DNA of 64,000 nt from Escherichia coli (lineage in GTDB: Bacteria; Pseudomonadota; Gammaproteobacteria; Enterobacterales; Enterobacteriaceae). How positions within the stretch are numbered: position 1 is the stretch's first letter; every line of letters begins with the position of its first letter. Position numbers and translations under genes: made by a program. The notes below the pieces were generated by a model. It was given only the letters and a program-made list of their open reading frames with translations. It was not told where the DNA came from and searched no databases. The DNA is taken from NCBI RefSeq assembly GCF_013315695.1, contig NZ_CP054353.1. One strand, given 5' to 3'. This document shows, piece by piece, positions 3,326 to 61,755 of the stretch.

Positions 3326-4520
<1,195 letters not shown>

Positions 4521-4649
4521 CTTGTGAGTCCATTAAAACCCGATTTAAAACATTTTTATGCGTGTGTTTTCACAAAACAGATTTTCCGTTCCGCTGCCAT
4601 TTTTCATTTTCATTGATATCTAAGGCAACAAAAAATGGAGAGCCGAATC

Positions 4650-14739: not shown

Positions 14740-14826
14740 TGGTGCGAGGGGGGGGACTTGAACCCCCACGTCCGTAAGGACACTAACACCTGAAGCTAGC
14801 GCGTCTACCAATTCCGCCACCTTCGC
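14740..14826 (-). tRNA. leuV: tRNA-Leu (CAG), tandem copy 1
   Basis: Reverse complement reads GCGAAGGTGGCGGAATTGGTAGACGCGCTAGCTTCAGGTGTTAGTGTCCTTACGGACGTGGGGGTTCAAGTCCCCCCCCTCGCACCA, 87 nt; gene-name assignment among the copies is arbitrary. Confidence 0.95.
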
Positions 14827-14860
14827 ACAGTCATCTTACTTTTTTTGATATCGCCTCGTT

Positions 14861-14947
14861 TGGTGCGAGGGGGGGGACTTGAACCCCCACGTCCGTAAGG
14901 ACACTAACACCTGAAGCTAGCGCGTCTACCAATTCCGCCACCTTCGC
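14861..14947 (-). tRNA. leuP: tRNA-Leu (CAG), tandem copy 2
   Basis: Identical 87-nt sequence and identical 34-bp spacer to copy 1. Confidence 0.95.
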
Positions 14948-14981
14948 ACAGTCATCTTACTTTTTTTGATATCGCCTCGTT

Positions 14982-15069
14982 TGGTGCGAGGGGGGGGGAC
15001 TTGAACCCCCACGTCCGTAAGGACACTAACACCTGAAGCTAGCGCCTCTACCAATTCCGCCACCTTCGC
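14982..15069 (-). tRNA. tRNA-Leu (CAG)-like, divergent tandem copy 3 (88 nt)
   Basis: Same unit but with a 9-C run instead of 8 in the T-stem/acceptor region and one D-arm substitution (GGTAGAGGCGC versus GGTAGACGCGC). Confidence 0.75.
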
Positions 15070-15097
15070 CCAGTGCGAGCAATATCAACGTGGTTTT

Positions 15098-15184
15098 TGG
15101 TGCGAGGGGGGGGACTTGAACCCCCACGTCCGTAAGGACACTAACACCTGAAGCTAGCGCGTCTACCAATTCCGCCACCTTCGC
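15098..15184 (-). tRNA. leuQ: tRNA-Leu (CAG), promoter-proximal copy 4
   Basis: Identical 87-nt tRNA-Leu sequence; 28-bp spacer to copy 3. Confidence 0.95.
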
Positions 15185-22199: not shown

Positions 22200-22975
22200 T
22201 TTGCCGTTTTATCGACACCCACTGCCATTTTGATTTCCCGCCGTTTAGTGGCGATGAAGAGGCCAGCCTGCAACGCGCGGCACAAGCGGGCGTAGGCAAG
22301 ATCATTGTTCCGGCGACAGAGGCGGAAAATTTTGCCCGCGTGCAGGCGTTAGCGGAAAAATATCAACCGCTGTATGCCGCATTGGGCTTGCATCCTGGTA
22401 TGTTGGAAAAACATAGCGATGTGTCTCTTGATCAGCTACAGCAGGCGCTGGAAAGGCATCCGGCGAAGGTGGTGGCGGTGGGGGAAATCGGTCTGGATCT
22501 CTTTGGCGACGATCCGCAATTTGAGAGGCAGCAGTGGTTACTCGACGAACAACTGAAACTGGCGAAACGCTACGATCTGCCGGTGATCCTGCATTCACGA
22601 CGCACGCACGACAAACTGGCGATGCATCTTAAACGCCACGATTTACCGTGCACTGGCGTGGTTCATGGTTTTTCCGGCAGCCTGCAACAGGCCGAACGGT
22701 TTGTGCAACTGGGCTACAAAATTGGCGTAGGCGGGACTATCACCTATCCACGCGCCAGTAAAACCCGCGATGTCATCGCAAAATTACCGCTGGCATCGTT
22801 GTTGCTGGAAACCGACGCACCAGATATGCCGCTCAATGGTTTTCAGGGGCAGCCTAATCGCCCTGAACAGGCCGCCCGTGTGTTTGCCGTGCTTTGCGAG
22901 TTACGACCGGAACCGGCGGATGAGATTGCCGAAGTGTTGCTTAATAACACCTATACGTTGTTTAACGTGCCGTAG
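22196..22975 (+). CDS. yjjV: TatD-family metal-dependent hydrolase
   Basis: 259-aa ORF with HCHFDF motif; TTG start overlapping the yjjU stop. Confidence 0.8.
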   Translation: MICRFIDTHCHFDFPPFSGDEEASLQRAAQAGVGKIIVPATEAENFARVQALAEKYQPLYAALGLHPGMLEKHSDVSLDQLQQALERHPAKVVAVGEIGLDLFGDDPQFERQQWLLDEQLKLAKRYDLPVILHSRRTHDKLAMHLKRHDLPCTGVVHGFSGSLQQAERFVQLGYKIGVGGTITYPRASKTRDVIAKLPLASLLLETDAPDMPLNGFQGQPNRPEQAARVFAVLCELRPEPADEIAEVLLNNTYTLFNVP

Positions 22976-23091
22976 GCCGGACAAGGCGTTTACGCCGCAT
23001 CCGGCCGTTGGCGCACAATGCCTGATGCGACGCTTGACGCGTCTTATCATGCCTACAGGTCTGTGCCGATCCGTAGGCCACATCCGGCATG
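22976..23091. repeat. REP/BIME cluster between convergent yjjV and yjjW
   Basis: Three REP-like palindromic units (gccggacaaggcgtttacgccgcatccggc; gcctgatgcgacgcttgacgcgtcttatcatgcctac; gtaggccacatccggcatg). Confidence 0.75.
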
Positions 23092-50117: not shown

Positions 50118-50186
<69 letters not shown>

Positions 50187-50204
50187 CGCGTACAGGAAAC
50201 ACAG

Positions 50205-50240
50205 AAAAAAGCCCGCACCTGACAGTGCGGGCTTTTTTTT
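50205..50240 (+). terminator. thr attenuator (rho-independent terminator)
   Basis: aaaaaagcccgcacctgacagtgcgggc followed by an 8-T run. Confidence 0.9.
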
Positions 50241-50266
50241 CGACCAAAGGTAACGAGGTAACAACC

Positions 50267-59128: not shown

Positions 59129-59716
59129 ATGAATACTTTACGTATTGGCTTAGTTTCCATCTCTGATCGCGCATCCAGCGGCGTTTATCAGGATAAAGGC
59201 ATCCCTGCGCTGGAAGAATGGCTGACATCGGCGCTAACCACGCCGTTTGAACTGGAAACCCGCTTAATCCCCGATGAGCAGGCGATCATCGAGCAAACGT
59301 TGTGTGAGCTGGTGGATGAAATGAGTTGCCATCTGGTGCTCACCACGGGCGGAACTGGCCCGGCGCGTCGTGACGTAACGCCCGATGCGACGCTGGCAGT
59401 AGCGGACCGCGAGATGCCAGGCTTTGGTGAACAGATGCGCCAGATCAGCCTGCATTTTGTACCAACTGCGATCCTTTCGCGTCAGGTGGGTGTGATTCGC
59501 AAACAGGCGCTGATCCTTAACTTACCCGGTCAGCCGAAGTCGATTAAAGAGACGCTGGAAGGTGTAAAGGACGCTGAGGGTAACGTTGTGGTGCACGGTA
59601 TTTTTGCCAGCGTACCGTACTGCATTCAGTTGCTGGAAGGGCCATACGTTGAAACGGCACCGGAAGTGGTTGCTGCATTCAGACCGAAGAGTGCAAGACG
59701 CGAAGTTAGCGAATAA
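59129..59716 (+). CDS. mog: Molybdopterin adenylyltransferase
   Basis: 195-aa from ATG 59129 (MNTLRIGLVSISDRAS). Confidence 0.95.
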   Translation: MNTLRIGLVSISDRASSGVYQDKGIPALEEWLTSALTTPFELETRLIPDEQAIIEQTLCELVDEMSCHLVLTTGGTGPARRDVTPDATLAVADREMPGFGEQMRQISLHFVPTAILSRQVGVIRKQALILNLPGQPKSIKETLEGVKDAEGNVVVHGIFASVPYCIQLLEGPYVETAPEVVAAFRPKSARREVSE

Positions 59717-59736
59717 AAAAATCCCCCCGGGCGGGG

Positions 59737-61162
59737 TAATGCCAGTCAGTTAAGCAACTGACTGGCTCTTTTTCGGGGCTGTGGGGTATTTCCAGGGCCT
59801 CTCCTTTACCACTCTCGGGAAGGCCCTTTCCCTTCTTGTCGGTAATTTCACAAGTTGTCCCATACTTGCAAGATCGCGCATCAGCTCCGGTATACGTCCC
59901 GGTGAAGCGCCCTGCAATGTCATCAGCATTCTCATCACCATTCCGCATGATTCTGAGAAACTCAGTTGATTCGGCCAGTAACCTTTCAGATGTTCCGCCA
60001 TTTTAATCATCTGATATCTCACCAGATTATAAGCCAGTAAGACACCCCACAGCTCTTGCTCCACAAGCTCCGGTTTTTTACTTCTCAGCGTCAGCCTGCT
60101 CAGTTGCATCGTCTGTTTTATCTCCCTGTATCCCAGTTCGATTTCCCAGCGATGACTGTACAGATCCGCCATTTCTCCTCCGGGGAAGCGCATGGCGTCC
60201 GTCATCGACGTCAGCAGATGGCAGACTTTTCCTTTGCGCGTCACGGTCAGCAGGCGGGCTGTCACTTCATTTCCCAGTCCCGGCCACTTTTTTCGTGCCT
60301 GCGGGCTGGTTTTCAGCTTCACCAGATGATCGCCTTTACCCAGTTTTCTGATCTCTTCATATTGCGCTCCCTTTCTGAGAGGTATCATCCAGTGGCGGTG
60401 TTCTCCCGCCAGGCTCCAGGCATTTAACAGTCCCAGTGAGTAATAACCTTTATCCATTAACGTCAGAGTGTTATCGCCGGTTTGTTCTATAAGTTGCTCA
60501 GCAAGCTCATTTTCGCTGTTCTTCATCGTGCCGAAGGCTGCAGCCGTCAGCAGATGGCTGGTCAGTTCCATCTGGCAGACCATTTTGACCTGCGGGTAGA
60601 GCGCCGGGTTCCCGGCATGTGTCTGGCGGGGGAAGGCTGCATCGTTCTCTGGTGTATCCGGTGTGCGCCAGAACACACCATCGATGGCCAGCAGGGTCAG
60701 GCCGCACCAGTGCGGATGCGGCGTGGCGTTATGCCAGAGCTGCGCTGTTTTCGTGAACACGCGGCGGACAGCCTCACTTCCCAGGCGCTGGCGGGCCTGA
60801 ATAACGGCACTGGGGGCAACGAAGGGGCGATTGCCCGGCAGCATGATGTCCAGGCGATTCACAATCTGGTGAAGAGGTTCTTTACGCTCAAGCGCCATGC
60901 CAACAATACACCAGACCATCATTTCGAGGGGAAGACGGCGCTTGCGTAGCGTTACAGTACCTGATTCGGCAAGGCAACGAGAGATGAGTTCGGGGTCGAG
61001 GTAATCCCCCAGAGAAGTCAGTGGGTTACGCAGAGAATCGTAACGGGATACCAGATCAAGAGCCTGTCCAATGTGCATAAAAAAATCCGGAAACAAGTGA
61101 GCGTTTCCGGATTCTTACACAGCCACTGGATCGGTCAACTGATCCTTAACTGATCGGCATTA
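59737..61162 (-). mobile_element. IS4 insertion sequence, complete (1426 bp), flanked by 12-bp direct repeats
   Basis: 18-bp terminal inverted repeats taatgccagtcagttaag / cttaactgatcggcatta; identical 12-mer ccccgggcgggg at 59725-59736 and 61163-61174. Confidence 0.9.
59750..61078 (-). CDS. insG: IS4 transposase (DDE, IS4 family)
   Basis: 442-aa from [16 protein letters not shown]...; contains HRWEIE...YREIK motif of IS4-family transposases. Confidence 0.9.
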
Positions 61163-61188
61163 CCCCGGGCGGGGGGATCTCAAAACAA

Positions 61189-61755
61189 TTAGTGCGATTC
61201 ATCAATCGGCAGAACGGTGCGACCAAACTGCTCGTTCAGCACTTCACCCATCGCCAGATAGATTGCGCTGGCACCGCAGATCAGACCAATCCAGCCGGCA
61301 AAGTGGATGATCGCGGCATTACCGACAATGTTACCGATCGCCAGCAGGGCAAACAGCACGGTCAGGCTAAAGAAAACGAATTGCAGAACGCGTGCGCCTT
61401 TCAGCGTGCCGAAGAACATAAACAGCGTAAATACGCCCCACAGACCCAGGTAGACACCAAGGAACTGTGCATTTGGCGCATCGGTCAGACCCAGTTTCGG
61501 CATCAGCAGAATCGCAACCAGCGTCAGCCAGAAAGAACCGTAAGAGGTGAATGCGGTTAAACCGAAAGTGTTGCCTTTTTTGTACTCCAGCAGACCAGCA
61601 AAAATTTGCGCGATGCCGCCGTAGAAAATGCCCATTGCAAGAATAATACCGTCAAGAGCGAAATAACCCACGTTGTGCAGGTTAAGCAGAATGGTGGTCA
61701 TGCCGAAGCCCATCAAGCCCAGCGGTGCCGGATTAGCCAACTTAGTGTTGCCCAT
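61189..61755 (-). CDS. satP: Succinate-acetate/proton symporter
   Basis: 188-aa 6-TM ORF MGNTKLANPAPLGLMGFGMTTILLNL (GPR1/FUN34/YaaH family). Confidence 0.95.
   Translation of the reverse strand: MGNTKLANPAPLGLMGFGMTTILLNLHNVGYFALDGIILAMGIFYGGIAQIFAGLLEYKKGNTFGLTAFTSYGSFWLTLVAILLMPKLGLTDAPNAQFLGVYLGLWGVFTLFMFFGTLKGARVLQFVFFSLTVLFALLAIGNIVGNAAIIHFAGWIGLICGASAIYLAMGEVLNEQFGRTVLPIDESH

Follow-up and report, generated by a model that had tools for sequence, protein, structure and literature searches.

IS4, the founding member of the IS4 family, is carried by Escherichia coli K-12 as a single copy (insG) between yjgZ and nanX, with a 442-aa transposase that contains the Nterm_IS4 and DDE_Tnp_1 domains and the YREK motif, and it is flanked there by a 12-bp target duplication. 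The specificity of IS4 for the arms of its target was noted decades ago, and Mayaux et al. in 1984 reportedly gave AAA-N20-TTT as the consensus of IS4 targets. Another IS4 family element, IS231A, is said (Hallet et al., 1994) to prefer GGG(N)5CCC flanked by A/T-rich bent DNA. In IS10 and IS50 the transposase start is sequestered by a fold-back structure that forms in read-through RNA. The hairpins found at gene ends are familiar surroundings for several kinds of mobile element: class C group II introns are found after intrinsic terminators, and IS200 next to terminator hairpins. REP sequences are targeted by IS110/IS1111 or IS1397-type elements (PMC1525189). Members of the IS4 subgroup are recognised by the end signature -AATR- (PMC2266710, Table 1) and by a target-site duplication of 10-13 bp (PMC2266710).

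Here, a complete IS4 is described in the 64,000-nt stretch of E. coli DNA that was analysed (the window), inserted between the convergent genes mog and satP (Table 1). The first-pass annotation had placed an IS4 at 59737-61162, and both the coordinates and the identity are confirmed: the element is 1426 bp long and differs from the IS4 of K-12 MG1655 at only four positions (1422/1426, 99.7% identity), which rules out a novel IS. Matches of 100% are annotated 'IS4-like element IS4 family transposase' in RefSeq genomes. Its first letters, from 59737 on, are TAATGCCAGTCAGTTAAG, and its last, up to 61162, are CTTAACTGATCGGCATTA; the terminal inverted repeats, TAATGCCAGTCAGTTAAG and TAATGCCGATCAGTTAAG, are imperfect, matching at 16/18 positions; they begin TAATGCC and so contain the end signature of the IS4 subgroup. 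The transposase is encoded by a single ORF on the minus strand, in the same sense as satP as had been annotated, and differs from the K-12 transposase at 2 of 442 residues. Its Pfam matches to Nterm_IS4 (3e-33) and DDE_Tnp_1 (8.7e-32) are well above threshold, its translation contains the motif Y(2)R(3)E(6)K, and the 12-bp duplication falls inside the range of the subgroup. The window element is therefore a canonical IS4 in each defining feature that can be tested, and with its ORF and both ends intact this copy is apparently functional. It shares length, terminal repeats, transposase architecture and duplication length with the K-12 element and differs from it in location only, K-12 having its copy between yjgZ and nanX and the window in the mog/satP terminator. 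IS4 is widespread in the species: 2686 of 5426 complete E. coli genomes have it, at a median of 1 place each and at no more than 32 in any one genome, and the chromosomal places in this genome set number roughly 5300. The window contains one copy.

Table 1. Coordinates of the features of the mog-IS4-satP locus, numbered from the first letter of the window.
Feature	Position	Strand	Basis
mog (molybdopterin adenylyltransferase), intact	59129..59716	+	ORF; mog annotated at the equivalent place in AF3, E1, SCU-313, MSB1_4I and K-12
A7 run and 'tcc', left palindrome arm at the ancestral site; supplies the U-tract when the satP terminator is read on the minus strand	59717..59724	.	sequence, fold
Left copy of the target-site duplication, ccccgggcgggg	59725..59736	.	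string comparison
IS4	59737..61162	-	4 mismatches vs K-12 IS4; sole copy in the window
IS4 terminal inverted repeat, end near the transposase 3' end	59737..59754	.	sequence, repeat finder
Inward-facing terminator-like hairpin, facing transcription from mog	59741..59775	+	terminator scan, fold
IS4 transposase (InsG-type), 442 aa and stop, intact	59750..61078	-	ORF, Pfam, K-12 comparison
Hairpin and U7 directly before the transposase AUG; predicted to stop satP read-in and hide the start codon	61079..61116	-	fold, covariation
Promoter-like site: TTGACC, 16 nt, AAGAAT, preceded by TG	61111..61138	-	consensus scan
IS4 terminal inverted repeat, end near the transposase 5' end	61145..61162	.	sequence, repeat finder
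Right copy of the target-site duplication, ccccgggcgggg	61163..61174	.	string comparison
Right palindrome arm at the ancestral site, ggatctcaaaacaa, reaching to the satP stop codon	61175..61188	.	sequence, fold
satP (acetate/succinate transporter), intact	61189..61755	-	ORF; counterparts in AF3, E1, SCU-313, MSB1_4I and K-12

The insertion lies in the short interval between the two stop codons. On the left, the mog stop codon (TAA, 59714-59716) is followed by aaaaaaatcc and then ccccgggcgggg, which places it 20 nt from IS4; on the right, the second ccccgggcgggg and ggatctcaaaacaa lead to the satP stop codon (61189-61191, minus strand), 26 nt from IS4. Because both stop codons are outside the element, gene disruption is ruled out, and the mog and satP coding sequences are both uninterrupted. 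The perfect 12-bp target duplication that had been proposed was verified by string comparison, ccccgggcgggg being present at 59725-59736 and 61163-61174 with 12/12 positions identical, a match that has a chance probability of about 4^-12 at a fixed position. An automatic direct-repeat search did not return the duplication among the 20 families listed; it surfaced within a 34-nt inverted pair composed of the duplication and the terminal repeat, because ccccgggcgggg is itself nearly palindromic. An assembly artefact is ruled out as well, since the same junctions are found in eight independent assemblies. A search of Rfam found no known RNA family in or beside IS4.

Deletion of 59737-61174, i.e. 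the IS and one repeat, gives the empty site gaataaaaaaatccccccgggcggggggatctcaaaacaattag, in which a hairpin is restored as the first-pass annotation had described, and K-12 MG1655 carries the same empty site except for one loop base (gagc). The annotation had also stated that K-12 lacks an IS here, and indeed none is present in the mog-satP interval of MG1655; the edited window aligns with the insertion-free K-12 talB-dnaK region collinearly over 4501 nt at 98.3% identity. As described, the hairpin is cut in two by the element; the duplicated 12 bp have their midpoint in its loop. In both the reconstituted and the K-12 site no more than about 10 nt separate the hairpin from the satP stop codon. 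Folded in the satP sense, the reconstituted site forms an 11-bp stem (-19.1 kcal/mol) followed by AUUUUUUU, with U7 after the hairpin on the satP strand; folded in the mog sense, it forms an 8-bp stem (-16.1 kcal/mol) followed by CUCAAAAC, without a U-tract. On these folds the ancestral hairpin is predicted to be a canonical intrinsic terminator for satP only, and for mog it would be at most a non-canonical or bidirectional terminator. The 'shared terminator' of mog and satP in the first-pass annotation therefore holds only as a shared hairpin, the satP half of the claim being upheld by the 11-bp stem and U7 and the mog half failing for want of a U-tract. A literature search for mog/satP as a mapped bidirectional terminator returned general papers only.

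The mog/satP site has been occupied by IS4 repeatedly. Among 5426 complete E. coli genomes, eight carry IS4 between mog and satP, four in the orientation of the window (AF3, MSB1_4I, E1 and SCU-313) and four with IS4 inverted (AF14, OZ546911, 24AR0376 and SY033); the same insertion is thus already present, annotated as IS4, in public genomes. The same 12-bp register was found in every carrier locus examined (seven of the eight genomes and the window). Both repeat copies have the loop allele gggc in the window, AF3, MSB1_4I, AF14 and 24AR0376 and the loop allele gagc in E1, SCU-313 and SY033, and each allele is present in each IS4 orientation. Two orientations combined with two loop alleles imply, from the sequences compared, at least four independent insertions at mog/satP, and several independent insertions at one site would in turn imply that IS4 has been recently active in E. 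coli.

Near-identical flanks join some of the carriers. The window, AF3 and MSB1_4I differ by 0-1 SNP in 4.3 kb, the window being about 99.9% identical to the AF3/MSB1_4I lineage across its whole length and having the same IS4 orientation, loop allele and 12-bp register, while E1 and SCU-313 have identical flanks; within each of these two groups the insertion was probably inherited. Even so, the window is identical to none of the other carriers, differing by 1-2 nt in the IS and 1 SNP in the flanks, and the remaining carriers differ from it in loop allele, orientation or transposase integrity. The similarity within the two groups is what would be expected of one ancient insertion, spread by vertical inheritance or by recombination between strains without any hot spot, but as an account of all the carriers this history is extremely unlikely. 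Flanks differ between carrier groups by about 45 SNPs per 4.3 kb, IS4 is present in both orientations, and both repeat copies match the local loop allele, with gggc and gagc each found in each orientation; a single event would need parallel mutation of both repeat copies as well as an in-place flip of the IS. AF14 has flanks identical to those of AF3 across 4.3 kb and has its IS4 flipped. Presence, orientation and loop allele at mog/satP are thus homoplastic and provide no clonal marker unless the flanks are checked.

Recurrence might also reflect selection, the insertion being kept for changed satP or mog expression, e.g. because the satP 3' UTR is lengthened or the stability of the mRNA altered, and the site has indeed been occupied repeatedly in human-associated isolates from the UK, Australia, China, the USA, New Zealand and Korea. 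Adaptive retention is nonetheless very unlikely: only 8 of 5426 genomes carry the insertion, both orientations are equally frequent, and some of the copies are decaying, with a pseudogene transposase in two of the four same-orientation copies of other genomes (one with an internal stop, one with a frameshift). Target preference alone accounts for the recurrence. The site is a hot spot in relative terms only, with IS4 at mog/satP in eight genomes while 2686 have IS4.

Six IS4 copies picked regardless of their flanks (K-12, strain 2452, NCTC86, CE10/IAI39, strain 20 and XDL) have targets made up of an A-run, stem, loop, stem and T-run, and include the adhE and aroA 3' ends. Five further sites (L013-L017) of the 15 that were reconstructed include the convergent pairs pdxK/crr and ompX/opgE as well as copies within fiu, an ABC permease gene and IS66 tnpA, but were taken from hits ranked partly by flank similarity to mog/satP and are biased to that extent. 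Duplications at the 14 other IS4 sites are 11-13 bp long. In 13 of the 15 reconstructed empty targets the loop centre lies no more than 1 nt from the duplication centre, and 10 of the 15 fold at least 2 sd better than shuffles. Pairing between the two ends of the duplicated bases exceeded that of partner-shuffled controls in 1000/1000 shuffles. The coincidence of loop centre and duplication centre therefore indicates cuts that are symmetric about the dyad of terminator-like palindromes.

The pattern extends to relatives of IS4. A scan for IS4 left ends in one genome per species gave 67 loci in many Enterobacterales, with elements 75-90% identical to IS4. Across 65 non-redundant left flanks of IS4 and IS4-like elements, A is found at -20 to -17 in 72-86%, positions -12 to -9 are C-rich and G is dominant at -4 and -1; an A-run of at least 4 is present in 50/65, compared with 5.5% of random positions. 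The resulting target pattern is roughly AAAA-N3-[11-13 bp]-N3-TTTT, and the native IS4 site of K-12 fits the older AAA-N20-TTT exactly. IS4 and its relatives thus generally insert at the dyad centre of A-run/GC stem/loop/stem/T-run sequences. The mog/satP site itself is only half a match to this symmetric pattern, its left arm (A7) being strong and its right arm (TCT; ggatctc without the usual T-run) weak, and the presence of both orientations there would fit a symmetric rule for which one good arm is sufficient. Compared with the targets of IS231A, those of IS4 are alike in having a palindromic GC core, A/T tracts and cuts centred on the dyad, and unlike in core, spacing and subgroup. A literature search found no usable explicit statement that IS4 targets terminators.

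An association with terminators could arise by survivorship if IS4 inserted more or less randomly, hits in genes being purged and hits in terminators tolerated. Terminators and the gaps between convergent genes are low-cost sites, and a family-level survey reported ISs to be enriched between convergent genes, with half of IS families favouring convergent gene pairs and an over-representation of terminator-like sequences just upstream of and inside ISs (bioRxiv 10.1101/2025.07.22.666184). Moreover, four of eight new IS4 insertions in selection-free mutation-accumulation lines were in coding sequence (PMC5009759). However, selection could not account for the single-nucleotide register that is seen, with 13/15 centres within 1 nt and the same 12 bp used in at least four independent events, and the IS4 copies that interrupt genes (fiu, ygeA, an ABC permease and IS66 tnpA) keep the A-run and CCCC at the same offset. 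Survivorship is accordingly considered quite unlikely, and insertion by target preference remains the preferred reading of the recurrence.

Insertion leaves each mog/satP junction with only a 4-bp CCCC/GGGG stem, and the satP side is without a U-tract. Two hairpins are present inside the element. The left-end hairpin (59741-59766) starts 4 nt inside IS4 and has a perfect 11-bp stem and a 4-nt loop followed by TCTTTTTC, its tail when written through 59775 being TCTTTTTCG; it folds at -19 to -20 kcal/mol with a z-score of about -5.9. IS4 relatives that are 75-90% identical retain its T-run, and conservation of the hairpin itself is uninformative in that set because the exact-match pattern used to collect the relatives covers the hairpin. 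The second hairpin (61116-61081) has a stem of about 15 bp, and folds at -35.6 kcal/mol in context (z -6.0); U7 comes next and then, directly, the transposase AUG (61078). It was passed over by the terminator scan, in which extension of the stem consumed the T-run, and was recovered by folding. Across six IS4 relatives of 75-83% identity this start-codon hairpin shows two compensatory double changes (G-C to A-U; C-G to U-A or U-G) and a variable loop. The hexamers of the promoter-like site upstream are conserved in IS4 relatives, and the start that this site implies falls inside the 5' arm of the start-codon hairpin. When folded, read-through RNA reaches -34.5 kcal/mol with the AUG paired, and RNA beginning near 61105 reaches -7.3 kcal/mol with the AUG open.

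The first-pass annotation had the mog and satP transcripts ending within IS4 or reading into it; with hairpins at both IS4 ends, the narrower prediction is that read-in goes no further than a few tens of nucleotides past either junction: read-in from mog would stop about 30-40 nt inside IS4, and read-in from satP about 85-90 nt inside, before the transposase start. As the start-codon hairpin pairs the AUG, satP read-in should not drive transposase synthesis. The transposase is thus likely to be insulated from satP read-in, and mog and satP expression is likely to be little changed. The arrangement would resemble that of IS10 and IS50: a hairpin occupies the stretch from the IS end to the transposase start, and the element's own, putative promoter would fire from the 5' arm, leaving only RNA initiated outside the element able to fold. 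Unlike in IS10 and IS50, U7 comes after the IS4 hairpin and gives it the look of a full intrinsic terminator too. A literature search found no experimental evidence for such protection in IS4, and none of the papers found maps RNA 3' ends at the ancestral hairpin or at the two inside IS4.

The opposite outcome, the stronger reading of the first-pass annotation, would be that termination has been abolished, with satP reading into the transposase and activating transposition, and with transposase and mog transcripts running antisense into the neighbouring gene. The reduction of the junction hairpins to 4 bp, the loss of the satP-side U-tract and the shared direction of transposase and satP would all allow this, and the lineage does have many IS4 copies, at 18-19 places in AF3 and MSB1_4I. 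It is judged unlikely, given that the 15-bp hairpin and U7 between the IS4 end and the transposase AUG are kept by compensatory changes in diverged relatives, that an 11-bp hairpin with a T-run faces mog, and that in the predicted folds the AUG is paired in read-through RNA and free in RNA from the putative internal promoter. Furthermore, the decay of two of the four same-orientation copies, noted above, gives no sign of selection for expression.

Taken as a whole, the locus is very probably the product of a canonical IS4 that transposed, by target preference, into the intrinsic terminator between convergent mog and satP and brought replacement hairpins with it. An intact IS4 would have made staggered cuts symmetric about the hairpin dyad, and the central 12 bp, comprising part of the 5' stem, the loop and part of the 3' stem, would thereby have been duplicated. 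IS4-group transposases are proposed to favour an A-run, GC-rich stem, loop, stem and T-run, which is the shape of (bidirectional) intrinsic terminators, and the site would be recurrent for that reason. The native satP terminator would have been destroyed, leaving the 4-bp stem, and mog and satP transcripts would instead end at the element's own hairpins. Transcripts from the promoter of IS4 would start in the hairpin 5' arm and so escape the hairpin. Neither gene is broken and no phenotype is expected.

The finding is real, correctly read and ordinary, in that a known element behaves as expected, and for the window it has little consequence: a textbook IS occupies a non-coding site and leaves both neighbours intact. 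What is mildly new is only that three things are explicitly linked: the arm specificity of IS4, the cutting of terminators at their dyad, and the presence of a terminator-like hairpin at each end of the element. The literature that was searched seemingly does not spell out for IS4 the combination of dyad-centred terminator cutting and built-in replacement terminators. In common with the elements that home to terminators or REP sequences, IS4 uses a ubiquitous, non-coding, dyad-symmetric gene-end sequence where the cost of insertion is low; it differs from them as a DDE cut-and-paste element that makes dyad-symmetric cuts and duplicates 11-13 bp, the others inserting beside the hairpin or using a different chemistry.

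These features permit the tentative suggestion, which is offered as something short of an even chance, that the IS4 group are dedicated terminator-homing ISs, which cut bidirectional terminators symmetrically about the dyad and carry an inward-facing replacement terminator at each end. If so, an insertion would cost the flanking genes almost nothing, and the transposase would be shielded from host transcription. IS4 at the 3' end of a gene should not automatically be assumed to be polar or to cause read-through, since IS4 seems to bring terminators of its own. Furthermore, the pattern of A-run, stem, loop, stem and T-run, cut at the dyad, is a simple, testable rule by which IS4 hot spots may be predicted throughout the Enterobacterales.

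Copies of IS4 at the mog/satP terminator differ between strains in both orientation and integrity. In SCU-313 the element measures 1430 bp, is frameshifted and retains 98.1% identity to the copy in the window, while that of MSB1_4I contains an internal stop; the mog/satP copies are therefore decaying in some lineages. AF14 and AF3, both UK blood-culture isolates, match exactly over 4.3 kb of flanking sequence and have the same 12 bp duplicated at this site, yet their IS4 copies lie in opposite orientations: a single lineage may have been hit a second time independently, the element may have flipped in place, or the discrepancy may stem from assembly.

AF3 is also closely related to the window elsewhere (see the table). 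It carries an IS5-like ISKpn26-family transposase gene between lgoT and lgoD, and the window is collinear with AF3 at 99.97% across this stretch, so that on alignment grounds the same IS should also be present in the window. Only two tRNA-Leu(CAG) genes are annotated at the corresponding place in AF3 versus four in the window, where alignment of the two shows the surplus genes to be tandemly duplicated; the leu tRNA array looks like a case of copy-number variation between close relatives. Judging by the threonine operon leader, the conventional origin of E. coli coordinates falls at about 49930 in the window.

Additional features of the window
Feature	Window position	Strand	Basis or remark
Predicted second IS (IS5-like, ISKpn26-family)	~3394-4374		Collinearity with transposase gene at 3637-4617 of AF3 locus L089
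tRNA-Leu(CAG), four tandem genes	14740-15184	minus	~121 nt spacing
naRNA4 (REP-derived nucleoid-associated RNA)	22975-23053	+	Rfam match
Threonine operon leader	50122-50241	+	Rfam match

Beyond E. coli, IS4-like ends were also found in assemblies with non-enterobacterial labels, namely Chryseobacterium sp. 18061 (L085) and an Oscillospiraceae MAG (L088). The Chryseobacterium contig shares an identical 40-nt flank with a contig of Citrobacter sp. 18056 (L045) from the same project, suggesting cross-contamination or mislabelling and not a real host range. Within the Enterobacterales, the exact 30-nt IS4 left end marks expanded elements in several genera other than Escherichia, including 16 left ends in the single draft genome of Kosakonia oryziphila REICA_142 (L059-L074) and further expansions in Budvicia diplopodorum, Silvania hatchlandensis, Buttiauxella sp. 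A111 and Dryocola boscaweniae. Those expanded elements with enough sequence for alignment are 75-90% identical to IS4, and nearly all of the expanded elements adjoin a flank with an A-run and hairpin. A possible exception to this target rule, i.e. insertion at the centre of a terminator-like dyad, is found in three species of Pectobacterium (L040, L075 and L086), in which an IS4-like left end lies at the same flank, ttttctagcaagaaaatcattttctgaa, that has neither an A-run nor a GC hairpin. The Pectobacterium end may belong to an old copy, vertically inherited or degenerate, that breaks the rule.
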